Origin: Candidatus Nanogingivalaceae bacterium
GTDB taxonomy: Bacteria; Patescibacteriota; Saccharimonadia; Saccharimonadales; Saccharimonadaceae
DNA: 32,000 nt
Reading direction: 5' to 3'
NCBI GenBank assembly: GCA_015257795.3
Contig: CP072208.2
Location: forward strand, 30,001-62,000
The position numbers and the translations under genes are program-made. Positions within the stretch are counted from its first letter, which is position 1. The number at the start of each line of letters is the position of its first letter. This document shows, piece after piece, positions 1 to 32,000 of this stretch. Under the pieces are notes generated by a model. It ran no database searches and was not told the DNA's origin. It worked only from the letters and a program-made list of their open reading frames with translations.

Positions 1-155
1 TCCTTATGAACATCAGTTTGTTTCTCGGAGACAAATCCTTTAAACCGTACCAAGGTTCCTTTAGGTGATAAATCAGGATCAATTCCAATATAAAATTGAT
101 TATCAATGGAGATAACGCCACATGCAACGCCACAATAAGTAAACAAAATAGACAT
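1..155 (-). CDS. hypothetical protein, N-terminal fragment (gene runs off the left edge)
   Basis: Minus-strand ATG at 155-153 preceded by AGAGG. The frame stays open to position 1 (MSILFTYCGVACGVISIDNQFYIGIDPDLSPKGTLVRFKGFVSEKQTDVHK...). Too short for the ORF track. No family recognised. Confidence 0.35.
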   Translation of the reverse strand, partial: MSILFTYCGVACGVISIDNQFYIGIDPDLSPKGTLVRFKGFVSEKQTDVHK

Positions 156-227
156 AGTACCTCTATTATTTTATTAATTCTTTATATGTCCCAAGCAATC
201 TTACGCTAGTCAACTATAAACTACATG

Positions 228-776
228 CTAAATCTGTTTTGATGGTTTCGAGAAAAATAATAAATATATTCCAAACACAAGCTTAATCGCTGAGTCAATA
301 TATGCTATCAATCCTAAAGGTATAGCAATAAAAATGTATCCTACAAAAATATTAATGGCGCAAATAAGACCTAGATATATCATTGATTTTCCATGCACAA
401 AATAATACGGGAAAAAATGTAGTGCAGTTGCCATCAGCGCTCCCAGCCAAATTAATCTCCAATTCTCAGTCGCAAAGAATGGTCCACCCAGCAAAACCAT
501 TAAGATAAATAATAGAATAACGGCACGTGAAGATATTTTCTTTTGAAATTCACTCGAGGGGCCATCGGATAGTTTAGTTAGCACCTTTTTATTCATGTTG
601 ATTGAGAAAAAACTAATAACATATCCAATACTAAATATTTGCATATTTATTATTTGCTTTCCTCCTATTAAAGTAGCTATCGAAATAATCGCCGCTATTA
701 CAATTAGCCACAATCCACACGCTCTCTTATAATTGAATTCTAACTTTTCATCTTTATTGTAGCCTAAAAAAGCCAT
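228..776 (-). CDS. polytopic membrane protein, unknown function
   Basis: The ORF track entry 228..788 starts at a GTG. I prefer the ATG at 776 (MAFLGYNKDE...) because GGAG lies 6 nt upstream. Several long hydrophobic segments. No family recognised. Confidence 0.6.
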   Translation of the reverse strand: MAFLGYNKDEKLEFNYKRACGLWLIVIAAIISIATLIGGKQIINMQIFSIGYVISFFSINMNKKVLTKLSDGPSSEFQKKISSRAVILLFILMVLLGGPFFATENWRLIWLGALMATALHFFPYYFVHGKSMIYLGLICAINIFVGYIFIAIPLGLIAYIDSAIKLVFGIYLLFFSKPSKQI

Positions 777-870
777 AAAAATCTCCACTAATCTCTAATA
801 TTTACACCCCACTATATTGCTATTCTTTATTAAGGAGTTTTAAAAATAGCAATATAGTTTTTCGAATACT

Positions 871-4528: not shown

Positions 4529-4562
4529 ACAAAATAAAAACAGCTTCTTTCGAAGACTGTTT
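4529..4562 (-). terminator. intrinsic terminator after tRNA-Leu
   Basis: Minus sense: AAACAGTCTTCGAAAGAAGCTGTTT hairpin (4562-4538) followed by TTTTATTTT. Confidence 0.55.
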
Positions 4563-4576
4563 CTAAAAATAATTTC

Positions 4577-5735: not shown

Positions 5736-5864
5736 GATTTTTTCGAAACTTTCAGCTTCGAAAGCTGAGCTTAATTTTTTAAACTCAATTTTCGAAACTG
5801 AAAAATCGATCAATAGCCAATTTCTCACTTTTGAAATGTTCGCTTGTTTCACACAAGCTTTTAA

Positions 5865-5963: not shown

Positions 5964-6305
5964 CTATCTATATTTGGCCAGCGCTTGGCAGCCAATAATT
6001 TGACCGTCGCCATTTCTCACCGTTTTAGCAGTGAGAAGAAGATCTTGCGTATTTCGGCCGCTTAAGTATGCTGCTTTAGCGGTTAGGGCACTTACAATAT
6101 AATATGTGCCCTGATCATATTCTGGTAAATCAACTGGCTCACCATAAGATGTCTCAATTATTGGAATACCTTCAAGCATTCCAATTTGAATATCCTCTTG
6201 CGCAGCTCTTGCCTTACCCTCAGATTCGAAGACTTTAATTACATTGCCTTCTTCATTCATGATGTTAATTTTATGTGGCGTCAAGTTTATAATGATATTT
6301 GTCAT
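5964..6305 (-). CDS. hypothetical protein (113 aa)
   Basis: ATG 6305 with AAGAGGAAG SD. MTNIIINLTPHKINIMNEEGNVIKVFESEG... No family recognised. Confidence 0.6.
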   Translation of the reverse strand: MTNIIINLTPHKINIMNEEGNVIKVFESEGKARAAQEDIQIGMLEGIPIIETSYGEPVDLPEYDQGTYYIVSALTAKAAYLSGRNTQDLLLTAKTVRNGDGQIIGCQALAKYR

Positions 6306-6406: not shown

Positions 6407-6536
6407 AAAAGATAATAAAATGAACAATATTTTTAGCTCAATTCTGGTAATGTTCGGTTGTGATTTTAGTATTCACAACTCCATTAATTATAGCATAATT
6501 ACAATAAAAAGTCAAATTCGAAAAAAATCAAAAAAA

Positions 6537-6545
6537 TGTTAAAAT
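6537..6545 (+). promoter_or_regulatory. extended -10 promoter of rlmH (leaderless)
   Basis: TGtTAAAAT, then 6 nt to ATG 6552. No SD. Confidence 0.5.
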
Positions 6546-6551: not shown

Positions 6552-7010
6552 ATGAAAATGAAAATTATTGCGATTGGTAAAAAACATGAAAAGTGGGTTG
6601 CGGGCGGGATCGAAATGTTCGAAAAACGTTTGAAAAAGCCGTTTGAAGTGGAATGGCAAATTTTGGCGCATTCGAATTTTGCCGAGGAAAAAGCTCGTGA
6701 AGAAGAAACTTTGCGAATTTTAGAGAAAATTAAGCCGAATGATTTTGTAATTTTGCTTGATGAGCGCGGTAAAAATATTTCTAGTCCGGAATTTGCGAAA
6801 TTACTTTCGAACGGCTTTGTGAATTCGCAAAATTTTGTGATTGTGATTGGCGGTGCTTTCGGAGTTACGGAAGAGCTTCGAAAACGTGCAAATTTTGTTT
6901 GGAGTCTTTCGAAATTGGTTTTTCCGCACCAAATTGTGCGATTGATTTTAATTGAACAGATTTATCGGGCGCAAGAAATTTCTTCTGGCGGAAAATATCA
7001 CCATGAATAG
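6552..7010 (+). CDS. rlmH: 23S rRNA (pseudouridine1915-N3)-methyltransferase RlmH
   Basis: 152 aa SPOUT protein. IIAIGKK...VIVIGGAFGV...LSKLVFPHQIVRLILIEQIYRA...YHHE matches the RlmH pattern. Confidence 0.9.
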   Translation: MKMKIIAIGKKHEKWVAGGIEMFEKRLKKPFEVEWQILAHSNFAEEKAREEETLRILEKIKPNDFVILLDERGKNISSPEFAKLLSNGFVNSQNFVIVIGGAFGVTEELRKRANFVWSLSKLVFPHQIVRLILIEQIYRAQEISSGGKYHHE

Positions 7011-9678: not shown

Positions 9679-9687
9679 AATAGGCAT

Positions 9688-9903: not shown

Positions 9904-12030
9904 TTATTGCTTGACACCTTTCATTGTAAGATTCAACCTTCCCTTTTCGTCAATTTTATCTAGTTTTACCCAAATTTCTTGATCTTGGCTTAAAACATCC
10001 GTAACTTTTTCGGTTCGCTTTTCAGACATTTGTGAAATGTGAAGCATGCCATCAATTCCAGGAAGAATATTTACGAAAGCACCAAAGTCTTTAATTGAAA
10101 CAACTTTTCCGCGATAGATTTTGCCAACTTCAGGCTCTTCAACCAATGATTTAATCCAGTTCAGTGCTTTTTCAATCTGTTCAGCATTCGAGCTTGCGAT
10201 TGTAATCAAGCCGTCTTCCTTGATATCAACTTCAGCACCAGTTTCAGATGTAATCTTATTGATTGTTTCACCACCCTTACCAATGATTGCACCAATTTTT
10301 TCAGGGTTAATTTTAATCTTTTCAATCCGTGGTGCATATGGTGAAAGGTCTTTTTTAGGCTCAGAAATTACACTTAACATGTGGCGCAAAATATGCTCGC
10401 GACCTTTTCGTGAAGTTAAGATTGCTTTTTCAAGAACAGAAACTGGCAAACCATGAACTTTCATATCCATTTGGAGCGCTGTAATTCCGTTTTTCGAACC
10501 TGTACATTTGAAGTCCATATCGCCAGCAAAGTCTTCGGCGTCGGCGATATCGCTTAGAATGTAAGGTGTTTCACCATCCATCATTAATCCCATTGCGATT
10601 CCTGAAACGGGATTTTTCAAAGGTACGCCGGCGCTCATTAAAGCCATACAACTTGAACAAGTTGCTGCCATTGAAGTTGAACCATTTTGGCTCATAATTT
10701 CAGTCACGCTACGGATTGCATAAGGAAAATCTTCAACACTCGGTAAAACTGCTTCCAAAGCTCGTTGCGCCAAATAACCGTGGCCAATTTCACGCCGACC
10801 AGGGCTTCCTAGGCGTCGAGGTTCACCAACAGTATATCCGGGTGCATTGTAGTGGTGCATATATCGGCGTTCAATTTCGTTGAACTCCATTGTGTCAACC
10901 AATTGCGAATATGAAAGTGGTGCAAGAGTTACGATATTCATTGCTTGAGTCACGCCACGAGTGAAGAGGCTCGAACCGTGTGCTCGTGGCAAGAAGTCGA
11001 TTTCACTCGAAAGTGGTCGAATTTCATCTAACTCACGACCATCTGGTCGCTCGCCGTCTTCAATAATCCCCTTTCGAACTGCTTTATGAACCGCCAAAGT
11101 GAATGCTTCATCATATTCTTTTCGAATTTCTTCATACGCTTCTTCACCGAATTTTTCAAGCATTTCTGCGTGGAACTTCTCGCGAATCTCGGCAATATTT
11201 TGATTATACTTTGGATAAGCCTCACGAATTTTCGAATCGAATTTTCCGTCTGTCCACTCTTCCACTTCTTTTAAAATTTCTTCATTAGGCAAAACTAATT
11301 CGAAAGCGCGCTCCTCAAAATAACCTGCTTCGATATATTTTGCGCGTAATTCATTTTGGAGTTTAATTGCTGGTTGGAAATTTTCGTAAGCCCAAGCTAG
11401 CCCTGCGATAATTTCTTCTTCAGGAACTTCGTTTGCTCCAGCTTCAACCATTGTGATGCCGCTTTCGATTCCGGCAACAACCAAATCGAGCGGAGATTTT
11501 TCGCGTTCTTCAGGATTTAAGAAAGCTTTAAATTCTCCGTTAATTTTACCAATCCGAAGACCAGCAACTGGGCCATCAAACGGAACTCCAGCAAGATGCA
11601 ACGCGCTCGAAGCTGCAATCATCGCAATCATATCTGGTCGAAATTCTGGATCGGCTGAAAGAACAGTTGTGACAACTTGAACTTCTTCGCGATAACCTTT
11701 TGGAAACAAAGGCCGAATTGGGCGATCGATTAACCGACCAATCAAAACGGCGTCATCGCTTGGGCGACCTTCGCGCTTAATAAATCTTGAGCCAGAAATT
11801 CGTCCGCTCGCGTACCACTTCTCTTCGTAATCAATTGAAAGTGGGAAATAATCTAGCGCCACTGGTTTAGAGCCTAATTGAACGGTTCCCAAAACAACAG
11901 CTTCGCCGTATTTTACGATAACGCTTGAAGTTGAACGAAAGCCAACTTTGCCAACTTCTAGTGTTAATTTTCGACCCAAGAAATCAGTACTAACCGAAAT
12001 TAATTTCTTCCCGGTTGGATTTATGATCAT
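9904..12030 (-). CDS. pnp: polyribonucleotide nucleotidyltransferase (PNPase)
   Basis: Two RNase PH domains, KH (IGKGGETINKI) and S1 (GKVVSIKDFGAFVNILPGIDGMLHISQ). Start taken at ATG 12030 (MIINPTGKK...) with AGGAG 5 nt upstream. The track's extra 23 codons belong to the leader. Confidence 0.93.
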   Translation of the reverse strand: MIINPTGKKLISVSTDFLGRKLTLEVGKVGFRSTSSVIVKYGEAVVLGTVQLGSKPVALDYFPLSIDYEEKWYASGRISGSRFIKREGRPSDDAVLIGRLIDRPIRPLFPKGYREEVQVVTTVLSADPEFRPDMIAMIAASSALHLAGVPFDGPVAGLRIGKINGEFKAFLNPEEREKSPLDLVVAGIESGITMVEAGANEVPEEEIIAGLAWAYENFQPAIKLQNELRAKYIEAGYFEERAFELVLPNEEILKEVEEWTDGKFDSKIREAYPKYNQNIAEIREKFHAEMLEKFGEEAYEEIRKEYDEAFTLAVHKAVRKGIIEDGERPDGRELDEIRPLSSEIDFLPRAHGSSLFTRGVTQAMNIVTLAPLSYSQLVDTMEFNEIERRYMHHYNAPGYTVGEPRRLGSPGRREIGHGYLAQRALEAVLPSVEDFPYAIRSVTEIMSQNGSTSMAATCSSCMALMSAGVPLKNPVSGIAMGLMMDGETPYILSDIADAEDFAGDMDFKCTGSKNGITALQMDMKVHGLPVSVLEKAILTSRKGREHILRHMLSVISEPKKDLSPYAPRIEKIKINPEKIGAIIGKGGETINKITSETGAEVDIKEDGLITIASSNAEQIEKALNWIKSLVEEPEVGKIYRGKVVSIKDFGAFVNILPGIDGMLHISQMSEKRTEKVTDVLSQDQEIWVKLDKIDEKGRLNLTMKGVKQ

Positions 12031-12132
12031 ATCTTCTCCTTCTGCCAAATGAGTTGCAGGAATCTTCTTCGAAAAGCTTTCGAAAATAATTTCTACCACA
12101 CATTTGGCGTTAATTTTACCCTTTTATTATAG
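12025..12132 (-). repeat. promoter/leader cassette copy A (upstream of pnp)
   Basis: 108 nt with 5 mismatches to 12614-12721. Holds TATAAT (12131-12126; the -35 TTGCTA lies at 12154-12149). Leader stem GCCAAATG (12108-12101) pairs with CATTTGGC (12051-12044). Also contains an inner TTCGAAA/TTTCGAA hairpin, AGGAG and the ATG. Confidence 0.85.
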
Positions 12133-12259
12133 CATTTTCGAGTAAATTTAGCAAAATATATTGATTGATTTTATTGGAAATTAACCCAAGTTTTAGACTC
12201 TGAATATTATAATGGAAGGTATAAAGAATTTGTCTATAATGGAAAAATTTTATAGCAAC

Positions 12260-13985: not shown

Positions 13986-14021
13986 TTGAAAAAACAAAAA
14001 AGCTTCGAAAATAACGAAGCT
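13986..14021 (-). terminator. intrinsic terminator after the ATP-grasp-like gene
   Basis: Minus sense: AGCTTCG-TTATTTT-CGAAGCT hairpin (14021-14001) followed by TTTTTTGTTTTTT. Confidence 0.65.
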
Positions 14022-14022
14022 T

Positions 14023-15036
14023 TTAAAGTGTTTGGCGATATTTATTTTCAACCAAGATTTTTATATCACATGCATATAACCCAGAATTCGAAAGCGGGTT
14101 TAATTCAACAATTCCCGGTTTACCGTTAATTATTGCTGCATCCAACACAAAATCTTTAGTTTTAAAAACCGGCGTAATTTCTTTAGCGGTTTTTCGAGCA
14201 AATTCAAGTAATTGATTTCGAATCTTAGGTTGAAATTTAACTTCGGTTTGATTGCGAATTTCTTGCAGTTGCGGATCAAACTTTTCAGTGTTTTGCAACC
14301 AAGTAAAATCTTCAATGTTACCAGCCGAAGTTAACACTTCCCCGTTCACACAAAAACAACGCATTTCATAACGAATATCTGCAAAATCTTGAATGAATAA
14401 ATCATTTTCGTGCCAGGCATTCATTATTCTTACCAGCATTTCGTGAGTTGGCTTTTGAGATAAATCAATTTCGAAAATTCCCGCTTTTGGATTTATCATA
14501 ATTTTAACCATTACTTTTTTATGGTTTTGGCCGAAAATTTCAAGCGTTTCTAGAAAATTTTCGCTATAACAATGAATGAAATCTCGATTAAAATATTTTT
14601 GAACTTGCGGCTTTAAATCGTATCGATTAACGTCATAGTTTGGATGTTTTTCGATTCCAAATCGGGGTAAGTTCAATTTCGAATAATCAAAATTTAAGAT
14701 TTTTCCGGTTTTATCAAATACAACCGTATCTTGTTTTGAGCCAAGATCATAAAAAACAAAAATTGGATTTTGCGCAACCTCGAGGCCAAATTTTATTCGG
14801 CCAATCATTTCTAGCCAAAGCTCGGTGTCTTGCTTTAAGTGAGTGTGTAAATTATTTACATAATTCAAAATGCTGTGCAAATCTTTTGGATTACAATTTT
14901 GTGTTTCCTGCTTGGGAAATTCAAATTTTTGGGCAAGTTTTTTGAACTCTGTTTTCAATGAATCCGGAACGCGCTTTTCGAAATCTTCGTTCGAAATTTC
15001 AAACACATAATTACTGATAATTAAATCGTAGGCCAT
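14023..15036 (-). CDS. ATP-grasp-fold protein (R2K-clade-like), function unknown
   Basis: 337 aa from ATG 15036 (MAYDLIISNY...) with GGAGG SD. C-terminal half has ATP-grasp-like strands LFIQDFADIRYEMRCFCVNGEVLTSAGN and DFVLDAAIINGKPGIVELNPLSNSGLY. Confidence 0.5.
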   Translation of the reverse strand: MAYDLIISNYVFEISNEDFEKRVPDSLKTEFKKLAQKFEFPKQETQNCNPKDLHSILNYVNNLHTHLKQDTELWLEMIGRIKFGLEVAQNPIFVFYDLGSKQDTVVFDKTGKILNFDYSKLNLPRFGIEKHPNYDVNRYDLKPQVQKYFNRDFIHCYSENFLETLEIFGQNHKKVMVKIMINPKAGIFEIDLSQKPTHEMLVRIMNAWHENDLFIQDFADIRYEMRCFCVNGEVLTSAGNIEDFTWLQNTEKFDPQLQEIRNQTEVKFQPKIRNQLLEFARKTAKEITPVFKTKDFVLDAAIINGKPGIVELNPLSNSGLYACDIKILVENKYRQTL

Positions 15037-18049: not shown

Positions 18050-18114
18050 AATTCCCTTTAATCGCATTTATTCAACATTTCACGCGAAATTTTTTAATGC
18101 GTGAAAATTTTACA

Positions 18115-18144
18115 TTTACAATTATACCACATTCGGTGTATAAT
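18115..18144 (+). promoter_or_regulatory. promoter of the FemAB-family gene (leaderless). Overlaps the divergent valS extended -10 (TGgTATAAT, minus, 18129-18121)
   Basis: TTTACA (18115-18120), 18 nt, TATAAT (18139-18144), then 6 nt to ATG 18151. Confidence 0.5.
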
Positions 18145-18150
18145 ATAAAT

Positions 18151-19230
18151 ATGCTAAAGATTATCGAAATTACAGATAAAAAAGAATGGGACGATTTTGT
18201 TAACGAACATAACGGTCATCCTTTGCAGCTTTGGGGCTGGGGTGAACTTAAAGCCGAGTCATCAAACTGGAAAGTGGTGCGAGTTTTTTTGAAGAACGGT
18301 GAAGAAAAATACATTGATCGCAAGAAGAATGATCATTCAGATATTGTGGCAGCAGCGCAAATTTTAATTCGAAAACTACCTTTTCCGCTTAATAGTTTTG
18401 CATATATTCCGCGTGGCGCTTTGGCGCTTTCGAAAAAACCGATTGAACGAGCTCGCATTTCGCGTGAAATAGCACTTTGGGTTTCGAAAAACATTAAACC
18501 AAAACCAGTTTGTTTGAGTATGGAGCCAGATTGGAATGAAGATGAATTTGAGATTCGTGATGGCTGGCGAAAGAGTAAAAATACTATTTTAATTCCGCGA
18601 ACGCTAATTATTGATTTAACGCAAACTGAAGATGAATTGCTCGCACAAATGAGCAAAAAAACGCGTCAATATATTCGAAAGAGTAGTGGGGAAGTAAAAA
18701 TTCGCCAACTTCGTTCGAAAGAAGATATCGATCGCGCGCTAGAAATTTACGTTCAAACTGCAAAGCGTGCTGGTTTTGCAATTCACCCTAAAAAATATTA
18801 CCACGACCTCTATAAAAAAATGGGTGAAAATTCGCCAATTTTTGGTGCATTTATAGATGTAAACTCGAGTGAAGAGCAGGGGCAAGCTTTCGAAAATAAC
18901 CAAACTCAAGAAATGGTTGCATTTTTGTGGTTTGCGCAAAGCAACTATACTTCGTTTGAGCTTTATGGCGGCGTGACTGAAATGGGTCAAAAAGTGCGCG
19001 CTAACTACATTTTAAAGTGGACGGCAATGCTCGAAATGAAAAAACGTGGTGTGGAAAGATATGACTTCAACGGTCTTTTGAACGATGGGATTTCGAAATT
19101 CAAAGCTGGTTTTGCGCATCATGAAAATATGCTTGTTGGAACTTTGGATTTTCCGATTTCGAAAACATATTTCATCTGGAATTCATTCTTACCGACTGCG
19201 AAAAAAATCGTGCGAAAATTCAAAAAATAG
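18151..19230 (+). CDS. FemAB-family peptidoglycan interpeptide-bridge aminoacyltransferase
   Basis: 359 aa from ATG 18151. MSKKTRQYIRKS and LYGGVTEMGQKVRANYILKWTAMLEMKKRGVERYDFNGL match the FemX/MurM family pattern. Confidence 0.78.
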   Translation: MLKIIEITDKKEWDDFVNEHNGHPLQLWGWGELKAESSNWKVVRVFLKNGEEKYIDRKKNDHSDIVAAAQILIRKLPFPLNSFAYIPRGALALSKKPIERARISREIALWVSKNIKPKPVCLSMEPDWNEDEFEIRDGWRKSKNTILIPRTLIIDLTQTEDELLAQMSKKTRQYIRKSSGEVKIRQLRSKEDIDRALEIYVQTAKRAGFAIHPKKYYHDLYKKMGENSPIFGAFIDVNSSEEQGQAFENNQTQEMVAFLWFAQSNYTSFELYGGVTEMGQKVRANYILKWTAMLEMKKRGVERYDFNGLLNDGISKFKAGFAHHENMLVGTLDFPISKTYFIWNSFLPTAKKIVRKFKK

Positions 19231-19333: not shown

Positions 19334-19339
19334 AGAATT

Positions 19340-21246: not shown

Positions 21247-21264
21247 GTTTTTGAAAAAGAAAAA

Positions 21265-21294: not shown

Positions 21295-21308
21295 GAAAAT
21301 GTATCAAA

Positions 21309-21563: not shown

Positions 21564-21605
21564 TTAGTGTCCTTCTTTTAGGTTGTTATTTACAATTCAA
21601 CATCG

Positions 21606-21634
21606 ATTATACAGTATTTCGAAAGAAAAAGCAA
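21606..21634 (-). promoter_or_regulatory. rpsT promoter
   Basis: Minus sense: TTGCTT (21634-21629), 17 nt, TATAAT (21611-21606). Confidence 0.5.
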
Positions 21635-21651
21635 GTATTTCAAATAAACTA

Positions 21652-21680
21652 TTGACATTTTATTATGATTATGCTAATAT
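21652..21680 (+). promoter_or_regulatory. promoter of the DHH-truB operon
   Basis: AACTATTGACA with TTGACA (21652-21657), 17 nt, TAATAT (21675-21680). Confidence 0.5.
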
Positions 21681-21724
21681 AGGGCTATAAATTATAAAAA
21701 TAAACAATAGGATTCAATAAACAA

Positions 21725-23746
21725 ATGTCAAAAAATAATGCTCAAGAGCAGATTATCGCAAAGTTGAAAGAATCAGAAAGCATTCTAATTGCGGTAAACG
21801 ATAACCCAAGTGTTGATGAACTTTCATCAGCTTTGGCGTTGACGCTTGCGATAAACAATTCAGGCAAGCATGCAACAGCAGTTGCGAGTGGTGAAATGCC
21901 AGATGCGCTAACTTTCTTGCGCCCAGAAAAAACTTTCGAACATTCGGTCGATTCTTTACGTGATTTTATTATCGCCCTAAATAAAGAAAAAGCTGATCAC
22001 TTACGCTACAAACTTGTTGGCGATCACGTTAAAATTTTCATTACGCCGTATCGTTCGGTGATTTCTGAAAAAGACCTCGAATTCGAACAAGGTGATTTTA
22101 ATATTGATTTTGTTTTGGCGCTAAACGTTGAAAGCCAAGATCGACTTGATGGTGCTTTGGCGGCACATGGTCGAATTTTTCACGATGCTTCAGTGGGAAT
22201 TTTAACTGTTGGCGAAAATCAAACAAATCTTAACGGAATTCACTGGCACGATGAAAGTGCAAGTTCTTTAAGTGAAATTACTGTTCAAATTATTGAATCT
22301 ATTGGCAAAAAAAATCTTACTGAATCAGTTGCTACCGCGCTTCTAACTGGAATCGTTGCGGAAACTGATCGATTCTCAAACTCGAAAGTAACGGCTGAAA
22401 TTATGGGTCTTGCTTCGAAACTTATCGCATCTGGCGCCGACCAGCAACTTGTTATTTCGAAAATTCGTGAAGCTGAAGAAAAAGCAGGCGAATTTGCCGT
22501 TCAGAAAAATGCTAAAATGGAAGAAGCACTTGAAGAGCTTTCTGGCGAAAAAGAAGATAAAAAGCAAGTTTCGAAAACCGAACAAAAACGTGACGGTGCT
22601 TTCGTAATTGCTCACGAAGAAGCAAAAGCTAAAAAAGAATCTCAAGAGCCAGAAAAAGATAGTGAAGAGGAACTTGAAGAGTCTCTTAACGACCTAAAAA
22701 ATATTAACACTGGAGTTAATGCTTTCTCAGAACTTGAAGATGGAGATTCTGAAGATGAAGAAGTCGAGCAACCTCAAGAAGATTTCAAAGAAGTGGTTGA
22801 AGAGTCTAAAGAAGAGCCTGCTCAAAAAGAAGAATTTATTCCTCAGGCTCCAGTTCAGCCCGTAGTTGAGATTCCAACTCAACCAGTTGAAGCTACACCA
22901 GCACCAGTTGCTGAACCAAAAGAAGCTCCAGCGCAAGAACAAAATAACGATGCGCCAGTTCAACAAGAAATTCAACAACCAGCTCCACCTCAAAGTGTAG
23001 AAGGTTTAGTTGAGGCGCCGATTGAAAACTATGCGCCAGAAATTCCAGCTAGCGAGCCTTTCGAAAATCCGAATGCGTTTATTGCTGAATCTCCAGTTCA
23101 AGAGCAAGTTTTTGAACCAGCTCAACAAACTGAGATTTCTGTTCCAGCTTTTGAAGCTCCAACTCAACCAGTTGAAGCTACACCAGCACCAGTTGCTGAA
23201 CCAAAAGAAGCTCCAGCGCAAGAACAAAAACAGGGCGATGAATATTATCACCCTAAGGATAACGCAGAAATTGTCAGCGGGTTAATGGGCGCTCAGCCAT
23301 ATTCACCTAGTGGAATTAAGCGAGAAGATAATGCTGCCGCAACCTCAAACCCTGAAGATAACGATTATATTTTAAATCGTAAACAAACTCAGAATGCGGT
23401 TTACGAAGAGCCAAAAGATAATAGCAATTTTATACCCGAAACTAACGCTTATGCACAGGCTGCACCAGTTCAACCTCTTTCAAATTTCGAATCAAGCAAT
23501 CCGATTTCGAATGAACAATACGCGGCAAGTAATCCGGTGCAAAATTCAAATGATTTTGCAATGCCAATGCCACCAGCTATGCCAGATTTTAACACAATGC
23601 CAATGCCACCAGAAATTCCAAATTTTGACGTAGCTCCAAGTCCAGCAGAACAGCCGGCAATGGGTGCACAAAATAGTGGCGATAAAATAATGACGGATCA
23701 AATTTACCCTAACGATCCATCGCAGTTTAGAATTCCAGGAATGTAA
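21725..23746 (+). CDS. DHH-domain (NrnA-like) protein with degenerate catalytic motifs and a roughly 420-aa acidic/Pro/Gln-rich low-complexity tail
   Basis: The N-terminal ~250 aa align to the DHH fold (ILIAVNDNPSVDELSSALAL; LLTGIVAETDRFSN, compare GDTGRF). DHH motifs I-IV are mostly substituted. The rest is low complexity with an internal exact repeat. Sits directly upstream of truB, as nrnA-like genes often do. Confidence 0.65.
   Translation: MSKNNAQEQIIAKLKESESILIAVNDNPSVDELSSALALTLAINNSGKHATAVASGEMPDALTFLRPEKTFEHSVDSLRDFIIALNKEKADHLRYKLVGDHVKIFITPYRSVISEKDLEFEQGDFNIDFVLALNVESQDRLDGALAAHGRIFHDASVGILTVGENQTNLNGIHWHDESASSLSEITVQIIESIGKKNLTESVATALLTGIVAETDRFSNSKVTAEIMGLASKLIASGADQQLVISKIREAEEKAGEFAVQKNAKMEEALEELSGEKEDKKQVSKTEQKRDGAFVIAHEEAKAKKESQEPEKDSEEELEESLNDLKNINTGVNAFSELEDGDSEDEEVEQPQEDFKEVVEESKEEPAQKEEFIPQAPVQPVVEIPTQPVEATPAPVAEPKEAPAQEQNNDAPVQQEIQQPAPPQSVEGLVEAPIENYAPEIPASEPFENPNAFIAESPVQEQVFEPAQQTEISVPAFEAPTQPVEATPAPVAEPKEAPAQEQKQGDEYYHPKDNAEIVSGLMGAQPYSPSGIKREDNAAATSNPEDNDYILNRKQTQNAVYEEPKDNSNFIPETNAYAQAAPVQPLSNFESSNPISNEQYAASNPVQNSNDFAMPMPPAMPDFNTMPMPPEIPNFDVAPSPAEQPAMGAQNSGDKIMTDQIYPNDPSQFRIPGM
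22873..22944 (+). repeat. 72-bp exact direct repeat, copy 1 (in frame, encodes PTQPVEATPAPVAEPKEAPAQEQ)
   Basis: Identical to 23158-23229. Offset 285 bp (95 codons). Confidence 0.9.
23158..23229 (+). repeat. 72-bp exact direct repeat, copy 2
   Basis: Identical to 22873-22944. Confidence 0.9.
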
Positions 23747-24467: not shown

Positions 24468-25016
24468 ATGAAAAGCGCAAAAATTCTTTGGATTGATTTA
24501 GAAATGACTGGTCTTGATCCGCAAAAAGACCGGATTTTAGAAGTTGCCGCAATTGCGACAGACTGGGATTTTAACGAAATTGCCACTTTTGAAAGTGCGG
24601 TTAAAGTTGATGAAAAAACACTCGAAAGCCGAATGGTTGGCGAGTTTTGGGATACTTTTAGTGAAACGCGCAATGCTTTAAAATTACAAAACTCTCGTGC
24701 TACGAAAAATTCACAAGAAGTTGAAGCGGACTTAATTAAATTTGTAGAAGAAAACTTTGCGGAAGAACTTACGAATGGCGAAAAGATTCTTTTGGGCGGA
24801 AATTCAATTCACCAAGATCGCCGATTTATTCGTGCGGAATGGAAAAAACTTGAAAAAATGTTGCATTATCGAATGCTAGATGTTTCGGCGTGGAAAGTTG
24901 TGATGAGTGCCAAGTTTAAACGGGTTTTTGCCAAGCCCGAAAACCACCGTGCGTTGGATGATATTCGCGGTTCGATTGAAGAGTTGAAATTTTATTTAAA
25001 AAAGGTGAAAAAATAA
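24468..25016 (+). CDS. orn: oligoribonuclease (DEDDh 3'-5' exonuclease)
   Basis: LWIDLEMTGLDPQKDRILEVAAI, GNSIHQDRRFI, HRALDDI motifs. 182 aa. Confidence 0.92.
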   Translation: MKSAKILWIDLEMTGLDPQKDRILEVAAIATDWDFNEIATFESAVKVDEKTLESRMVGEFWDTFSETRNALKLQNSRATKNSQEVEADLIKFVEENFAEELTNGEKILLGGNSIHQDRRFIRAEWKKLEKMLHYRMLDVSAWKVVMSAKFKRVFAKPENHRALDDIRGSIEELKFYLKKVKK

Positions 25017-25441
25017 TGAATCAAGATGAAATTAGAGATTTTTTGTTAACTTTTGATGCGGCAGAAGTTCGAAAAGATGAAGAAAATAAGCTTGAAATTT
25101 TTGAAGTTAATTTCGATAAATTAGAAAAAATTTGGCAAGAAAAAATGACTGGTGAGCTTGGTGATTTTGAACGTGCGACTGGTGAAAAGATTCTTTCGAA
25201 AATTGCGGAAAGTGAAGAATCGAAAGCAATTTTTGCAATTATCCATGATGGCTCAAAACCATTAAACGTTGAAATGAAAACTGGTGCGCAATTGGCGCGA
25301 ATTTTGCGTGAAAAGGAGAGCGTGGTCCCTTCTAAATTAATGAACGAGCGTGATTGGAATTTGATTATTGGGCAAGGGCAAGTTGCGGCCGATGAGCTTT
25401 GTGACTTATTGCGACTAAGTTATCGATTAGCTTGTGAGTAG
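25016..25441 (+). CDS. hypothetical protein, possibly MmcQ/YjbR-like
   Basis: Start overlaps the orn stop (TAATG). The C-terminal pattern DWNLIIGQGQVAADELCDLLRLSYRL resembles YjbR-family ends. Weak call. Confidence 0.4.
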   Translation: MNQDEIRDFLLTFDAAEVRKDEENKLEIFEVNFDKLEKIWQEKMTGELGDFERATGEKILSKIAESEESKAIFAIIHDGSKPLNVEMKTGAQLARILREKESVVPSKLMNERDWNLIIGQGQVAADELCDLLRLSYRLACE

Positions 25442-25448
25442 TTAACTA

Positions 25449-25477
25449 TTGACAAAAATATATTTATATGGTAACAT
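25449..25477 (+). promoter_or_regulatory. promoter of the GC-rich unit
   Basis: AACTATTGACA with TTGACA (25449-25454), 17 nt, TAACAT (25472-25477). Confidence 0.5.
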
Positions 25478-25502
25478 AGTAATTACCTCTTTTTGGGGAA
25501 AT

Positions 25503-25528
25503 TATAGCCGTGCGGGCTTTAAACGCGG
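25503..25528 (+). promoter_or_regulatory. 26-nt conserved element, copy 1 (TATAGCCgtGCGGGCTTTAAaCGCGG)
   Basis: 23/26 identical to the minus strand of 5710-5735. Ends 8 nt before ATG 25537. Confidence 0.45.
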
Positions 25529-25839
25529 TACATTATATGACAAGAAGAAGAATTATTGACCACCACACAGCATATAGCGAAACGAAATGTGGGGTAAAGG
25601 CTCCTACTCAGAACAGGACGAATAATAGCCCAAATGAGCATTATGCTGTTGATGGAAACAGAAATAATGATGGGCAGTTAGCACGGTTGTCTGGACGAGT
25701 TGACGTTGACGGTAATAGGAATGGTAGTGAAAGTGAGCCGGCATGGCGAGCGCAAACTGCATGCTTTGGTGCATTCGATGGAAGTGCTCCTTGTGTTGCG
25801 CATCAAGAAGATCGTCGTTATGCAGACGATCGGTGGTAA
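25510..25839 (+). CDS. orphan hydrophilic D/G/N/R-rich protein (100-109 aa). Start is GTG 25510 or ATG 25537
   Basis: From ATG 25537 my hand count over 100 codons gives T = 13/12/42 and G+C = 56/~50/32 at codon positions 1/2/3, a strong coding periodicity. Own promoter and strong terminator. No hydrophobic core, 3 Cys, no family recognised. An ncRNA alternative is not fully excluded. Confidence 0.5.
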   Translation: MRALNAVHYMTRRRIIDHHTAYSETKCGVKAPTQNRTNNSPNEHYAVDGNRNNDGQLARLSGRVDVDGNRNGSESEPAWRAQTACFGAFDGSAPCVAHQEDRRYADDRW

Positions 25840-25849
25840 AAATCTTCTC

Positions 25850-25870
25850 GGCCTCGAAGGAGGCCTTTTT
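25850..25870 (+). terminator. strong intrinsic terminator
   Basis: GGCCTC-GAAG-GAGGCC followed by TTTTT. Confidence 0.8.
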
Positions 25871-25893
25871 CATTTGCGAAAAAAATATAAATT

Positions 25894-25902
25894 TGGTATA
25901 AT
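25894..25902 (+). promoter_or_regulatory. extended -10 promoter of the Q/N-rich protein gene
   Basis: TGgTATAAT, then 10 nt to ATG 25913. No SD. Confidence 0.5.
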
Positions 25903-25912
25903 CATAAGTAAT

Positions 25913-26830
25913 ATGAAACCAAATCAAGACTGGAATCAGAACGACCAAAATTATGGTGTTCAACCGAATAATTTTCCTCAAAATCAGTATCCACAACAAC
26001 AAAACTATGGTGGATATCCAAATGAGTTTACTCAAAATGGGCAATTTCCTGCTGAGCAAAATCAGCAGCAGTTTGGTGTTCAGTATCAAAACTATGGTGC
26101 TCAACAAAATTATCCGCAATATCCAAATGGGTATCAAAACCAACCTCAATATCCACGGCAACCAGTGCAGAATCCGTCTGCTGCTCCAAATTTAATGCCA
26201 AATCAAAACTATAACGGTAGCTCTGCATCTGAGAATCCGTATACCGTTGAGTATTTGAATAAAATCTCGCCTAAAAAGGCTGTTCCGTTTTGGACAAAGG
26301 GCAAGATTTTGGTTGCGTCCGCGCTTGCAATTGCGCTATTCTTTGCCATTTTCATTATTGCAACTGCTGGAAAAAGTGATGATTCTACGCAAAAAGTTCT
26401 TCGGGCTTATTATAACGTTGTGAAACTTAAAGAGATTACCGGGACGTATCAAAAGAAAATTAAAAGTTCAGACTTAGCAGCCGTTAATGCCGGAATCAAT
26501 ATTTCACTCAGTTCTGATGAGCAAATCTTAACAGAATACATGAAGAGTAAGAAAATTGATGTTCCGCGTGGTGATTCAAGGAAGAAATCAGAAATTTATA
26601 AGCAAACTGAAACTGATTTTAACAAGCTTGATACAACTCTTGATGATGCGTTTTTGAATGCTACGATTGACGAAGTTTATTCTCGTGAAATGGCCTATCA
26701 GTTAGTTCGTGTTAAAAACTTGATTGTTCGTCATAAAAAGACAGCAGGTTCTGTGCAGAAAAAAATGTATGCAAAGATTGAAAAAAATCTTGAAGAATCT
26801 TCAAAGCAACTCGAAAACTATAAGAAGTAG
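25913..26830 (+). CDS. single-pass membrane protein with an N-terminal Q/N/P/Y-rich low-complexity domain
   Basis: 305 aa from ATG 25913 (MKPNQDWNQNDQNYGVQPNNFPQNQYPQQQNYGGYP...). TM segment ILVASALAIALFFAIFIIATAG. About 180-aa C-terminal domain of unknown family. The track's start at 25700 reads through the upstream terminator. Confidence 0.75.
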   Translation: MKPNQDWNQNDQNYGVQPNNFPQNQYPQQQNYGGYPNEFTQNGQFPAEQNQQQFGVQYQNYGAQQNYPQYPNGYQNQPQYPRQPVQNPSAAPNLMPNQNYNGSSASENPYTVEYLNKISPKKAVPFWTKGKILVASALAIALFFAIFIIATAGKSDDSTQKVLRAYYNVVKLKEITGTYQKKIKSSDLAAVNAGINISLSSDEQILTEYMKSKKIDVPRGDSRKKSEIYKQTETDFNKLDTTLDDAFLNATIDEVYSREMAYQLVRVKNLIVRHKKTAGSVQKKMYAKIEKNLEESSKQLENYKK

Positions 26831-26840
26831 AATATTCTAA

Positions 26841-26867
26841 AAGCCGCTTTTTTCGAAAAGGCGGCTT
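26841..26867. terminator. bidirectional intrinsic terminator
   Basis: AAGCCGCTTTTT-TCG-AAAAGGCGGCTT long hairpin centred on TTCGAA. Lies between convergent genes. Confidence 0.7.
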
Positions 26868-26871
26868 ATTT

Positions 26872-27456
26872 TTATTTGTTGATAATTTCTTGAATTATTT
26901 TTTGTAAATCTGGAATCACTTCGTCCTTGAACCAAGGATTTTTTGCTTGCCAAATATTGTTGCGAGGCGAAGGGTGAACGAGCGGAAAATATTCCGGAAG
27001 ATAAGATTTATAATTTTTAACGGTTTCGGTTAGCTTATCAGACGATTTTTGATTAAGGTAATAATGCTGAGCATAATTACCAATTAAAATTGTTAATTCT
27101 ATATCTGGAGCGAGAGCAAGAACTCGCTTGTGCCACTTTTCAGCAAAGCCTTTCCTTGGCGGTAAATCGCCCGATTTTCCGTGTCCAGGAAAATAAAAAT
27201 CCATCGGAATAATAGCAAATAATCCTGAATTATAAAACTGTTCTTTACTTACGCCAAGCCATTCTCGAAGATTATCACCACTTGGGTCATTCCAATATAG
27301 CCCTGATTCTTGTGCGCGTATTCCTGGCGCTTGGCCAACAATGTTGATGCGTGCAGTTTTTGGAATTGTAAAGAGCGGTTTAATTCCTTGTTTTGTGTAG
27401 ATAGAATTTTGTGGATCGGCCATAATTTCGGCTGTAAGTTTTTCGATCGTTTCCAT
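26872..27456 (-). CDS. uracil-DNA glycosylase superfamily protein
   Basis: 194 aa. Motif A INIVGQAPG and motif B LVHPSPRNN. AAAGGAAAA SD. Confidence 0.82.
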   Translation of the reverse strand: METIEKLTAEIMADPQNSIYTKQGIKPLFTIPKTARINIVGQAPGIRAQESGLYWNDPSGDNLREWLGVSKEQFYNSGLFAIIPMDFYFPGHGKSGDLPPRKGFAEKWHKRVLALAPDIELTILIGNYAQHYYLNQKSSDKLTETVKNYKSYLPEYFPLVHPSPRNNIWQAKNPWFKDEVIPDLQKIIQEIINK

Positions 27457-30296: not shown

Positions 30297-30317
30297 AGTG
30301 GTGGAGAAAGGTTTAAA

Positions 30318-30956
30318 ATGAAGGAAAAACTTATACGAATTGCACCAATCTTGCTAATTATCGCGATTGCGATTCTTTCGATCATAACTGTTGTTACAGT
30401 AGTGAATGCGCTTATGAATGGTGGAAATAATAATCAATCACAGCAGGCTGGAGATGATTCTTCGAAAGAAGAAGATAAATCGGTTAAAGATTTATTAAGT
30501 GTTGAACAGAATCGTAGTGTTAAAATGGCGGTTCGAGGACCAATTGTGGCTCAAGAAAACTTTCGATCTTATACTGTTGAAGTGTCTCCAACTTATCGTA
30601 AGCTAATAACTTATAAAGGCTATCTTGATGAAGTTATTAAGGAAGTGAATTTGGGGAATAATTCAGAGTCGTATACTCAATTTGTGAATGCACTCAATAA
30701 GGCTAACATGATGAAGGGTGTTGCATTTAGTGGTGCGGCTGATGATCTTGCTGGGGTTTGTGCTACAGGACACCTTTATGATTTCTCAATTTTAAAAGAT
30801 GATAATGTACAAAAACATCTTTGGACTACAACTTGTGCAGGCTCTAAAGGTTCATTATTAGCAAACAATAAACAGCTTCAGAATTTGTTTATTTCGCAAG
30901 TTCCAGGAAATGAGCAAATTGTGCGTGATCTTGGGATTAATGAGAATAAGCGCTAA
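30318..30956 (+). CDS. membrane-anchored hypothetical protein
   Basis: N-terminal TM (IAPILLIIAIAILSIITVVTVV), then a ~170-aa extracytoplasmic domain with two Cys. No family recognised. Confidence 0.65.
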   Translation: MKEKLIRIAPILLIIAIAILSIITVVTVVNALMNGGNNNQSQQAGDDSSKEEDKSVKDLLSVEQNRSVKMAVRGPIVAQENFRSYTVEVSPTYRKLITYKGYLDEVIKEVNLGNNSESYTQFVNALNKANMMKGVAFSGAADDLAGVCATGHLYDFSILKDDNVQKHLWTTTCAGSKGSLLANNKQLQNLFISQVPGNEQIVRDLGINENKR

Positions 30957-31374
30957 AGTTCTATTTTTCGATTGTTTTGGAGTGCTGGTTTTACGCCAGC
31001 CTTCTTCAGAACATATTTTTGAATATGTCTGGAAAAAAGATAAAAATCTTTTAAATTTTATCCGTCAACAGAAGACTAATGGCCTAAAAATTGGAATTAT
31101 TTCTAATGTCGCACAATATCAATTTGATGAGTTTTTTTCCAGAAAAGAGCAAGCAGAACTTTTCGATTTTTTAGTATTATCTGGTGAAGTTGGGTGTGCT
31201 AAACCAAATTCAAGAATTTTTAAAATCGCAATTGAAAAGAGTAATGTTCTACCGAGCGAAATAGCTTTTTTCGATGATTCGATTTTAAATGTTGAATCCG
31301 CCCAAAAAGTGGGGATTCAGGGATTTTTATATAAAAATTGGGAAGATTTTTCAAAGGAATTTAAGGAGGATTAA
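30940..31374 (+). CDS. HAD-superfamily hydrolase (subfamily IA-like, short)
   Basis: Start taken at ATG 30940 (MRISAKVLFFDCFGVL...). The track starts at 30910. Motif I LFFDCFGVL, motif III K (GCAKPN), motif IV FFDDSILNVESAQKVG. Confidence 0.7.
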   Translation: MRISAKVLFFDCFGVLVLRQPSSEHIFEYVWKKDKNLLNFIRQQKTNGLKIGIISNVAQYQFDEFFSRKEQAELFDFLVLSGEVGCAKPNSRIFKIAIEKSNVLPSEIAFFDDSILNVESAQKVGIQGFLYKNWEDFSKEFKED

Positions 31375-32000
31375 TGCCAGAATTACCAGAGGTAGAGACT
31401 GTTGTCAGAGGATTGAATCGATTAATCTTGAAAAAGAAAATTTCGAAAGTAAAACACGATTGGCCTAAAAGTTTTCCAAATGCACCAAAAGATGTTGAAG
31501 ATTTTATGGTTGGTGCTGAGATTTCGAAAGTTAGTCGTCGAGGAAAAGCTATTATTTTAAAATTAAATAATGAATATACGCTTGTGACTCATCTTCGAAT
31601 GACGGGTCAAATGGTTTATCGGGGCGAAGAGAACTGGGGAGCCGGTCACCCGAATGAAGACTTTCTTAATGATCTACCGAATAAATCAACTCGTGTTGAA
31701 ATTGATTTTGAAGATGGAACTAAATTATTTTTTAATGATCAACGCAAATTTGGCTATATGAAATTGTTGCCAGATTTTGAAGTTGAACTTTTACCATTTT
31801 TCCAAAAATTAGGGCCAGAACCGTTAGAGGATAATTTTACGGTGGAAGTTTTAAAGAAGCAACTTTCAAGAAAAAGAAAAAGTATGGTCAAGCCAGTAAT
31901 TTTAGATCAAAGTGTTATTGCCGGTGTGGGGAATATTTACGCCGATGAAGCTTTGTGGCGAGCGAAAATTCATCCTGAAACTCGAATCGAAGATCTTTCG
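31374..32000 (+). CDS. mutM: formamidopyrimidine-DNA glycosylase (Fpg/MutM), C-terminus beyond the window
   Basis: ATG overlaps the HAD stop (TAATG). MPELPEVETVVRGL... catalytic N-terminal Pro. FNDQRKFGYM. Helix-two-turn-helix region DQSVIAGVGNIYADEALW. Open to the window end. Confidence 0.9.
   Translation, partial: MPELPEVETVVRGLNRLILKKKISKVKHDWPKSFPNAPKDVEDFMVGAEISKVSRRGKAIILKLNNEYTLVTHLRMTGQMVYRGEENWGAGHPNEDFLNDLPNKSTRVEIDFEDGTKLFFNDQRKFGYMKLLPDFEVELLPFFQKLGPEPLEDNFTVEVLKKQLSRKRKSMVKPVILDQSVIAGVGNIYADEALWRAKIHPETRIEDLS

Follow-up and report, generated by a model that had tools for sequence, protein, structure and literature searches.

The window analysed here is a 32,000-base stretch (GC 36.98%) of contig CP072208.2 from a Candidatus Nanogingivalaceae bacterium, a member of Saccharibacteria clade G6. 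Exact protein matches assign it to about 30,001-62,000 of CP076102.2, the complete 691,584-bp genome of strain JB003 from the human mouth. It carries pnp, rlmH, an ASCH-domain gene, a FemAB-family gene and a tRNA-Leu gene, among others, and in and between these genes the palindrome TTCGAA is greatly over-represented. The first-pass annotation, made from the sequence, had counted about 95-100 sites by hand against about 10 expected, an excess of roughly 9-fold. The machine count bears this out, with 100 sites vs 10.75 expected from mononucleotide composition (9.3-fold), which corresponds to 3.1 sites per kb or about one per 310 bp. TTCGAA ranks second in frequency among the 4096 hexamers and has the highest z-score of all; TTTCGA and TCGAAA follow as the next outliers, and no other 6-bp palindrome is enriched in the window. 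The 8-mer TTTCGAAA makes up 46 of the 100 sites (1.4 per kb), against 1.1 expected from mononucleotides (42-fold) and 5.25 ± 2.33 in dinucleotide-preserving shuffles (maximum 12 in 100 shuffles; about 9-fold excess). The density persists in the 9 kb that follow the window (28 sites in 8.9 kb), and from these ~41 kb together with the loci of relatives described below, we infer that TTCGAA covers the whole genome.

T occupies position -1 in 65% of the sites and A position +6 in 70%. Since the flanks beyond the 8-mer have background composition, TTCGAA is not part of a longer repeat element. An origin from the tRNA T-loop (GGTTCGAATCC) was also rejected, the flanks being T and A, with GTTCGAAC occurring 0 times and ATTCGAAT 2 times. 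Markov models predict 27.4 (order 1), 42.2 (order 2), 57.9 (order 3) and 88.9 (order 4) sites. The count is therefore 3.6-fold above the order-1 expectation, the reverse of the under-representation by which restriction-site avoidance is recognised, and the near fit at order 4 is circular because its 5-mers, TTCGA (142 occurrences) and TCGAA (134), are the motif's own halves. The observed/expected ratios of CpG and AA/TT in the window are 1.28 and 1.36, respectively. Arg is encoded mostly by CGN (323/376) rather than AGR in this 37% GC genome (CpG rho 1.28), and CpG observed/expected values of 1.0-1.6 are common across Saccharibacteria loci.

The sites lie in all codon phases, as TTC-GAA (26), xTT-CGA-Axx (16) and xxT-TCG-AAx (41), and in non-coding DNA, as the first-pass annotation had stated; the three FemAB-gene sites it cited (18889, 18674 and 18429) belong to phases 1, 2 and 3, respectively, counted from the gene start at 18097. 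The coding/non-coding split uses a corrected pnp start (see below), and the phase counts and the shuffles of coding sequence cover 83 sites in 31 genes. Coding DNA holds 81 sites vs 9.2 (mononucleotide; 8.8-fold) or 24.0 (order 1) expected, and non-coding DNA holds 19 vs 1.5 (12.7-fold) or 2.9, respectively. The enrichment is thus stronger outside genes than within. In the genes, 83 sites are observed vs 32.6 ± 4.7 after a synonymous-codon shuffle and 20.5 ± 4.4 after a codon-order shuffle. Even the kind of shuffle that the first-pass annotation had named as able to overturn its claim, one preserving codons and dipeptides, leaves the excess standing. When third positions are swapped only among codons that agree in their first two bases, in the amino acid and in the base that follows, which preserves the protein, all dipeptides and every N1N2N3N1' 4-mer, 52.7 ± 4.3 sites remain (maximum 65 in 500 runs). 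The shortfall of the protein-, codon- and context-preserving shuffles amounts to z = 7 to 14.

Codon choice depends on the context in the direction of the motif. The Ser codon TCG is used in 60% of cases in the T_TCG_AA context vs 11-19% elsewhere, and the Phe codon TTC in 55% before GAA vs 19% before other G-starting codons. The Arg codon CGA reaches 73% in TT_CGA_A and falls to 17-19% if the next codon lacks an initial A, and it is already at 51% with only the following A present. The dipeptides themselves are also in excess (FE 52 vs 36; SK 77 vs 49.5). An explanation by codons, dipeptides or composition was rejected on the basis of four shuffles and the non-coding enrichment.

For the distribution of the motif, we scanned one genome per GTDB species around pnp, which gave 80 loci (relatives' loci are labelled by L-numbers). 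TTCGAA is the top hexamer in eight of nine species-level G6 loci (all those long enough to score) and in the strain loci. In the G6 loci, whose PNPases are 94-95% identical, its observed/expected ratio is 8-13 and its density 3-4.5 sites per kb, vs 0.05-0.4 in other Saccharibacteria. About 60 of these other loci (PNPase at most 75% identical) contain 0-8 TTCGAA per ~12-22 kb locus; pooled, they have 0.22-0.5 of the order-1 expectation, which makes TTCGAA the 4th to 17th most avoided of the 64 palindromes. The sister lineages of G6 are graded, with 3.4 per kb in L211-213, 1.7 per kb in L016 and 1.0 per kb in L214-216, the last with nearly no TTTCGAAA and a basal position in the PNPase tree. The enrichment is specific to the G6 lineage and graded in its close sisters, and the trait therefore arose after the L214-like lineage had split off. 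It reverses an ancestral avoidance of TTCGAA. Since the density is 0.05-0.4 per kb in relatives and 3-4.5 per kb in G6, the G6 sites must have been created, not merely retained. The protected CpG context that the first-pass annotation had offered among its explanations is thus insufficient; protection of CpG alone was rejected also in view of the gains of sites and of the similar CpG observed/expected ratio in relatives that lack the motif.

The general remark of that annotation that restriction-type palindromes are normally avoided does hold, both for GATC, CATG, GTAC, ACGT, GGCC and CCGG in G6 and for TTCGAA itself in the other Saccharibacteria. The non-G6 loci (L017-L086) also avoid TTTAAA, GGGCCC, ATGCAT, GTGCAC and ACATGT, which suggests that restriction at these palindromes is common in the phylum or its surroundings. 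Some non-palindromic words are in excess among the relatives, namely TGGCGG/CTGGCG/CGCCAG in the G1-like loci L017-L042 and TCGCCA/CGCCAA in the sister lineages of G6 (L016, L211, L214), each 4-7-fold over the order-1 expectation. No extended consensus was found around TCGCCA, and, the pooled loci being orthologous, this type of excess may stem from repeated counting of a codon or peptide effect. The L016 and L211 loci form a mosaic in which pnp and tsaD are 93% identical and the DNA between and around them 78-79%, suggesting recombination between species of the family.

The G6 loci fall into three clades that are ~15-17% apart in DNA. TTCGAA sites of the window are intact in the other two clades in 63% of cases (212/337), vs 28% for 23 palindromes of the same GC, 36% for all 6-mers and 22-29% for other CpG-centred 6-mers. 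We also scored codon identity where the amino acid is unchanged, inside vs outside the motif. TTC is kept in 78% inside vs 45% outside (p = 3e-8), TCG in 74% vs 53% (p = 1e-4) and CGA in 87% vs 58% (p = 2.5e-5). The values for GAA (92/86%) and ATT (88/83%) do not differ significantly, and CTT and GTT, with very small counts, show no excess. For the flanking T and A, conservation is 91-98%, vs 85% for A/T positions generally. A hypermutable methylated CpG was rejected, since the C in TTC-GAA is better conserved than that in other TTC codons.

When the state common to two clades is taken as ancestral, per-branch retention of TTCGAA is 87.9% (102/116) vs 68.3% for other 6-mers under the same condition (p = 1.6e-6), that is, loss is ~2.6 times slower than for comparable 6-mers. 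Creation is faster as well: TTTGAA or TTCAAA became TTCGAA in 17.1% (7/41) vs a T>C and A>G background of 4.1% (odds ratio 4.9, p = 0.0012). The three clades have 33 sites in common, and the stems show 14 gains and 13 losses. The density is at a steady state of gain and loss at 3-4.5 sites per kb. Polarisation within clades gave 16 gains and 30 losses; control motifs indicate that the criteria are asymmetric there, and we rely on the stem counts instead. Where orthologues show a single difference, the other allele is TTTGAA or TTCAAA in 61 of 93 cases, and these two words are the source of 12 of the 16 gains polarised within clades, 7 of the 14 on stems and at least 3 of the 4 in the population. 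The population consists of 13 strains conspecific with that of the window and diverging by 3-6%, in which four motif-creating derived alleles are all at frequencies of 0.8-0.92 vs a mean of 0.40 for control T>C and A>G changes, and 19 motif-destroying alleles have a mean of 0.275, which is not significantly lower than the mean for control C>T and G>A changes (0.326). The direction of these frequencies fits a motif-favouring force and is suggestive only.

The motif has left an imprint on codons and apparently also on proteins. Within the pnp frame, the G6 species taken together have 14 motif positions, of which two lie in the extension 5' of the likely start. Twelve of the positions can be aligned with 70 non-G6 PNPases, and at only two or three of these would the peptide of the other Saccharibacteria allow the motif to be encoded; the remaining ones coincide with replacements specific to G6, for example IQQ to ISK, GTS to GSK, HQ to FE and LRV to LRI. 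Thus, the motif has shifted synonymous codon choice and, as far as such alignments tell, is associated with amino-acid replacements in housekeeping proteins. Clade-specific accessory segments, on the other hand, have 0.3-0.7 TTCGAA per kb vs 3.5-4.5 in shared DNA. The blocks specific to clade B (L007 1718-5093, L009 1677-5073 and L012 14365-16700; 0.3-0.6 per kb) consist mostly of genes without assigned function and include one FGase-family protein. In one clade-B genome, a D12-class N6-adenine methyltransferase and a convergent type II endonuclease (PADLOC REase_II) lie beside zwf (L011 19849-21641). Since it has 0 TTCGAA in 1.8 kb, this restriction-modification (RM) pair was probably acquired recently, and its most plausible targets, given the avoidance in clade B, are GATC and CATG. 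Newly acquired DNA starts without the motif, and acquired DNA in G6 could be marked or dated by its motif density.

The sites and the features that carry them are listed in Table 1.

Table 1. TTCGAA start positions and features of the window (window coordinates; codons separated by hyphens)
Feature	Position	Strand	Remarks
TTCGAA starts, sites 1-20	861, 1163, 2326, 2740, 2763, 3172, 3326, 3630, 3984, 4183, 4549, 5327, 5742, 5757, 5791, 6225, 6517, 6618, 6671, 6806		
TTCGAA starts, sites 21-40	6877, 6908, 7374, 7825, 8168, 8219, 8872, 9383, 9653, 9831, 10493, 11073, 11121, 11231, 11299, 12068, 12079, 12668, 13276, 13296		
TTCGAA starts, sites 41-60	14004, 14087, 14217, 14470, 14678, 14977, 14990, 15163, 15178, 15585, 15636, 15827, 15923, 16353, 16626, 17195, 17579, 17969, 18368, 18429		
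TTCGAA starts, sites 61-80	18483, 18674, 18714, 18889, 19092, 19158, 19280, 19548, 19921, 20072, 21618, 21935, 22082, 22414, 22456, 22570, 23060, 23486, 23506, 23757		
TTCGAA starts, sites 81-100	24035, 24066, 24228, 24386, 25068, 25195, 26852, 27888, 27982, 28125, 28258, 28296, 28777, 28795, 29794, 30266, 30461, 31442, 31523, 31594		
FemAB-family gene	18097..19230	+	8 sites, 7.1 per kb, every codon phase represented; examples 18889 TTC-GAA (F-E), 18674 aTT-CGA-Aag (I-R-K), 18429 ctT-TCG-AAa (L-S-K)
rlmH (SPOUT methyltransferase)	6552..7010	+	5 sites in 459 bp, 10.9 per kb, the densest gene of the window
Promoter-like site 5' of rlmH	6517..6545	+	-35-like TCGAAA at 6518, inside site 6517
Terminator-like hairpin 3' of tRNA-Leu	4538..4565	-	AAACAGCTTCTTTCGAAGACTGTTT, then T-run; TTTCGAA (4549) across loop and inner stem
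Hairpin	5751..5769	+	TTCGAA (5757) at apex; 5742 and 5791 on either side in the same intergenic region
Terminator-like hairpin	13998..14024	-	Stem contains TTCGAA (14004)
Terminator-like hairpin	26841..26867	+	AAGCCGCTTTTTTCGAAAAGGCGGCTT; site 26852 at apex
Putative pnp promoter and 5' leader	12031..12157	-	Sites 12068 and 12079; TTTTCGAAAGCTTTTCGAAG on transcribed strand
Duplicated segment, pnp and ASCH copies	12020-12157 / 12608-12746		90% identical; holds promoter-like site, 5' leader and start codon
pnp coding region	9904..12030	-	Motif positions and replacements compared among G6 species
Motif-poor stretch	24468..27456		Sites only at 25068 and 25195 (YjbR-like gene) and 26852 (terminator)
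113-aa protein	5964-6305	-	PADLOC 'Unk_01, unknown small protein, sometimes fused to CARF', E = 1.5e-24
T4SS_pilin gene	9208-9687		Single such gene in the window

The first-pass annotation had further placed the motif in terminator hairpins, twice in the pnp leader and at a -35 position. The hairpin sites at 4549, 14004 and 26852 and the two leader sites (12068, 12079) are indeed so located, and the TCGAAA at 6518 belongs to a putative rlmH promoter (TCGAAA, 16-nt spacer, TG-TAAAAT) that is a consensus match only. The pnp-leader segment (~125 nt) has a second copy upstream of the ASCH gene, in which the counterpart of 12079 is kept at 12668 and that of 12068 has decayed to TTCGAG. Since the segment upstream of it is duplicated before another gene, the pnp start is probably the ATG near 12030 rather than the GTG at 12099 of the longest open reading frame (ORF); many database PNPase homologues have the shorter 708-aa form. 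The shared upstream segment suggests that pnp and the ASCH-domain gene are regulated together. In the motif-poor 3 kb, the RNase T gene, a gene for a 376-aa protein without assigned function and the UDG-superfamily gene contain zero sites. This stretch may be a later acquisition or due to chance (P ~0.03 for the 1.1-kb gene alone). No further defence gene was recognised beside the Unk_01 protein. The L211 locus has six tandem T4SS_pilin paralogues followed by TrbL-, PrgI- and TraC-like genes (15052-22124), a Patescibacteria-type type IV secretion cluster.

Highly iterated palindromes of this kind are known from cyanobacteria as HIP1 (GCGATCGC). HIP1 shows the same conservation between genomes and within codons, which Xu, Lawrence and Durand attributed to selection rather than replenishment (PMC5861425), favouring a role in chromosome structure. 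It has been linked to cognate methyltransferases (Elhai 2015, PMC4390886), its methylated form is reported to raise natural transformation up to 100-fold (bioRxiv 10.1101/2024.09.10.611283), and it co-varies with a type IV secretion system that the authors tied to DNA uptake (10.64898/2026.06.24.733823). TTCGAA methyltransferases listed in a methylome survey make N6-methyladenine (m6A) (PMC5930826), and Saccharibacteria are naturally competent via ComEC (PMC10633639). The paper on human-mouth genomes of clade G6 is silent on motifs, methylation and restriction (Baker 2021, PMC8386444), and the literature search found no report of TTCGAA enrichment, an uptake sequence or a methylome for Saccharibacteria.

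We searched all ORFs of 21 G6-family loci (the window and 20 relatives) for methyltransferases by regular expressions (motif IV and 5-methylcytosine (m5C) motifs), followed by Pfam, NCBIfam and PADLOC. The sequence covered, ~41 kb of the 692-kb genome plus ~20 kb per relative, corresponds to ~6-10% of a G6 genome. The methyltransferases in these loci are MmeI-type enzymes and the one mobile D12-class RM pair, all strain-variable, and the flank downstream of the window contains none. An MmeI-type (type IIL) combined RM gene adjoins the window upstream in JB003 and some other strains (L005 1-922; L001, L003, L006) and is absent at that locus in L002 and L004. A clade-B genome has one elsewhere (L007 20690-23224), which, with 2.4 TTCGAA per kb, looks long-resident. 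Downstream of the window, at a distance of 9 kb, is a PilM-type pilus gene. Viral contigs scanned for paired TTTCGAAA as candidate G6 phages gave chance matches, with no G6-like density among the matches listed.

According to these results, the motif belongs to duplex DNA as such rather than to genes or RNA, and a directional force makes and keeps this 8-bp palindrome in one lineage. The first-pass annotation had pointed to such a force at the DNA level rather than to coding, and the shuffles, the non-coding enrichment, the context-dependent codons, the synonymous conservation, the retention and the faster creation of sites concur with it. We are thus highly confident that TTCGAA is maintained at the DNA level. 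The force would be supplied by a protein that reads the palindrome on double-stranded DNA. The likeliest reader would be a TTCGAA-specific DNA methyltransferase, presumably making m6A, and the involvement of a cognate methyltransferase seems to us rather probable. Methylated sites would mark DNA as 'self', and motif-bearing DNA would be preferentially taken up or recombined in these transformable, recombining epibionts. Motif-creating alleles could then spread via molecular drive and/or selection, as is now proposed for HIP1. That TTCGAA is a lineage-specific highly iterated palindrome acting as a methylated self-tag that favours transformation or recombination is a reading to which we give slightly less than an even chance, and a role in transformation or recombination as such we propose tentatively. 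The fullest form of the proposal, which we hold to be somewhat less likely than not, is that an ultrasmall epibiotic Patescibacterium would have independently evolved a HIP1-type system, with methylated TTTCGAAA as self tag and a drive strong enough to rewrite codon usage and housekeeping proteins.

Several observations weigh against the methylated self-tag. A TTCGAA-specific methyltransferase was not found in the ~6-10% of a G6 genome covered, and the searched literature yielded no G6 methylation data. Competence is known from other Saccharibacteria, not from G6, which is uncultured. Known uptake sequences are 9-12 nt long and not palindromic, and a 6-8-bp palindrome is a weak discriminator for uptake. 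One-mismatch variants of the motif are not conserved (32% kept vs 28% for controls and 36% for all 6-mers). Within aligned non-coding DNA, conservation of the sites does not clearly exceed that of the sequence around them (58% vs 52%, n = 43). Across the window, the sites are neither clustered nor regularly spaced (coefficient of variation (CV) of the spacing 1.00; largest gap 1657 bp, as for random placement). The allele-frequency test has low power, and back-mutation could mimic its gain signal.

Among the alternatives, an artefact of composition or coding, in which the excess would stem from CpG and AA/TT richness, codon usage and the dipeptides F-E, S-K and I-R-K, is extremely improbable. 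The CpG and AA/TT ratios, the order-4 expectation near the observed count and the commonness of the codons CGA and TCG would fit it, but CGA and TCG are common in the motif context only, the order-4 fit is circular, every shuffle falls far below the observed count and non-coding DNA is more enriched than coding. Moreover, L214 (22 sites in 22 kb) and L077 (8 sites in 22 kb) show no excess despite an equal or higher CpG observed/expected ratio and similar GC. It is almost inconceivable that the motif is a sequencing or assembly artefact at a modified site, as might be suspected of JB003, which was built from nanopore reads, because equal density is seen in independent assemblies from other projects, which cover many strains and another nine species-level G6 genomes and have contig names that point to assemblers of short reads (MEGAHIT-style k141 contigs, MetaWRAP/CONCOCT bins). 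The main rival is a neutral repair ratchet, which would couple a TTCGAA methyltransferase to methylation-linked mismatch correction, either of the very-short-patch (VSP) type or as in Elhai's methyl-directed model for HIP1 (PMC4390886). T:G mismatches in TTTGAA/TTCAAA heteroduplexes would be corrected to TTCGAA, damage within sites would be repaired, and the motif would be a functionless by-product. The prevalence of TTTGAA/TTCAAA among differing orthologues and as the source of gains, their conversion 4-fold above background, the equality of gains and losses, as in a mutation-type equilibrium, and accessory DNA without the motif are what such a ratchet predicts. However, pool size and transition bias would by themselves account for the dominance of TTYRAA as a source, given the rarity of other transition neighbours, and TTTGAA (53) and TTCAAA (34) are not depleted, their sum of 87 comparing with 96 at order 1 and 100-108 at orders 2-3, so that there is no deficit of the VSP type. 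Since the characterised TTCGAA methyltransferases found make m6A, not m5C, there would be no deamination mismatch to correct. The protection also reaches beyond CpG, to the A at motif position 5 (CGA, 87 vs 58%) and the flanking T/A (91-98 vs 85%). Many pnp sites needed multiple changes or transversions together with amino-acid replacements, and selection, not replenishment, was argued by Xu et al. for the same pattern in HIP1. We therefore consider the ratchet unlikely.

A classical DNA uptake sequence is quite unlikely as well. Here, a competence or type IV pilus surface receptor would bind unmethylated TTTCGAAA, and uptake bias with recombination would enrich the genome. The density of the 8-mer (1.4 per kb) is comparable to that generally known for the DNA uptake sequence (DUS) and uptake signal sequence (USS), the sites occur in all frames and in terminator hairpins, the motif is lineage-specific with graded relatives and missing from foreign DNA, Saccharibacteria are naturally competent, and pilus genes lie nearby. 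Against this, known uptake sequences are longer and asymmetric, and an AT-rich palindrome of 6-8 bp would be a weak filter, occurring by chance about once per 3 kb in the DNA of low-GC oral neighbours. Other Saccharibacteria are competent yet avoid the motif, and there is no candidate receptor. It is very unlikely, finally, that the sites form a binding or nicking array, either for an abundant nucleoid or segregation protein or as strand-discrimination sites of mismatch repair like GATC in E. coli. GATC recurs there about once per 240 bp, and TTCGAA, at a density near this (one per 310 bp), would be dense enough to serve every mismatch. The even, genome-like coverage with Poisson spacing, the conservation of individual sites and the chromosome-structure role proposed for HIP1 by Xu et al. 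speak for such an array. There is no candidate protein, however, and neither over-even spacing nor an avoidance of long gaps is seen, the largest being as expected at random. The mismatch-repair version is further weakened since, to our knowledge, MutS and MutL are missing from many reduced Patescibacteria.

Almost all work on hyper-abundant palindromes with conservation at the DNA level has concerned cyanobacteria, and after three decades there is still debate on what HIP1 does. An unrelated second example would show this to be a general phenomenon rather than a peculiarity of cyanobacteria, here with another sequence, another phylum and a 0.69-Mb genome that has few DNA-binding proteins. The reversal from avoidance to a 9-fold excess within one phylum, with graded relatives, is a natural experiment for finding the responsible gene. 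Since the genome is small and the series is graded (4.5, 3.4, 1.7, 1.0 and at most ~0.4 per kb), a comparison of gene presence and absence could identify the reader. The mechanism has become tractable, and the proposed reading, if true, would make the 30-year-old question of highly iterated palindromes directly tractable. The motif also illustrates clearly how a force on DNA overrides preferences at the protein level, and it is a strong compositional marker with which G6 DNA can be binned or recognised and horizontally acquired genes picked out. Should it be a methylated self-tag or an uptake signal, it would be needed, methylated, in DNA for transforming these uncultured organisms.

Compared with known systems, TTCGAA is a classical type II target (BstBI/AsuII isoschizomers) and is avoided in other Saccharibacteria as expected of restriction-site avoidance, but in G6 the sign is reversed and it is the most over-represented word. 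VSP repair with Dcm in E. coli leaves an excess of CCWGG and a deficit of CTAG, with an effect well under 2-fold. The likeness is that a repair bias at a methylated palindrome shifts k-mers there and that the change from TTYRAA to TTCGAA is the dominant gain route in G6; unlike in E. coli, the G6 excess is 9-fold, TTTGAA and TTCAAA are not depleted and the reported TTCGAA methyltransferases make m6A. In Campylobacter jejuni, the orphan methyltransferase CtsM makes m6A in RAATTY and licenses DNA for natural transformation. This is also a short AT-rich palindrome, and adenine-methylated self-DNA would be the mechanism favoured here for G6 by analogy; methylation and methyltransferase are demonstrated in C. 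jejuni and only proposed in G6, and we know of no report that RAATTY is hyper-enriched beyond composition. The DUS of Neisseria and the USS of Pasteurellaceae, thought to build up by uptake bias and recombination in competent bacteria, resemble the G6 motif in their density of ~1 copy per kb, their presence in all frames of coding DNA and in terminator hairpins, their lineage specificity and their scarcity in foreign DNA. They are asymmetric sequences of 9-12 nt, with the receptor ComP in Neisseria, in contrast to the perfect palindrome of 6-8 bp in G6.

The closest match that we found is HIP1, together with alternate palindromes of cyanobacteria. These are also short hyper-abundant palindromes of one lineage, at ~1 per 0.3-1 kb, in all frames and between genes, with an 8-mer around a 6-mer restriction-type core, related lineages at different levels or with variants, and a naturally transformable host. 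Their sites outlast control palindromes and codons are better kept inside the motif; both conservation tests of Xu et al., repeated on G6, had the same outcome. HIP1 has cognate methyltransferases (CGATCG, GATC), the counterpart of which was not found in the ~6-10% of a G6 genome covered. The excess of the G6 8-mer, 42-fold over composition and ~9-fold over dinucleotide shuffles, compares with a reported 15-300-fold for HIP1. In every tested respect except the one-mismatch variants (HIP1*), which are not conserved in G6, the G6 motif behaves like HIP1. Since the sequence (TTTCGAAA, AT-rich with a CpG centre and unrelated to GCGATCGC) and the phylum, Patescibacteria, both differ, we regard it as an analogue rather than a member of HIP1, and as the closest such analogue outside cyanobacteria among those we found.

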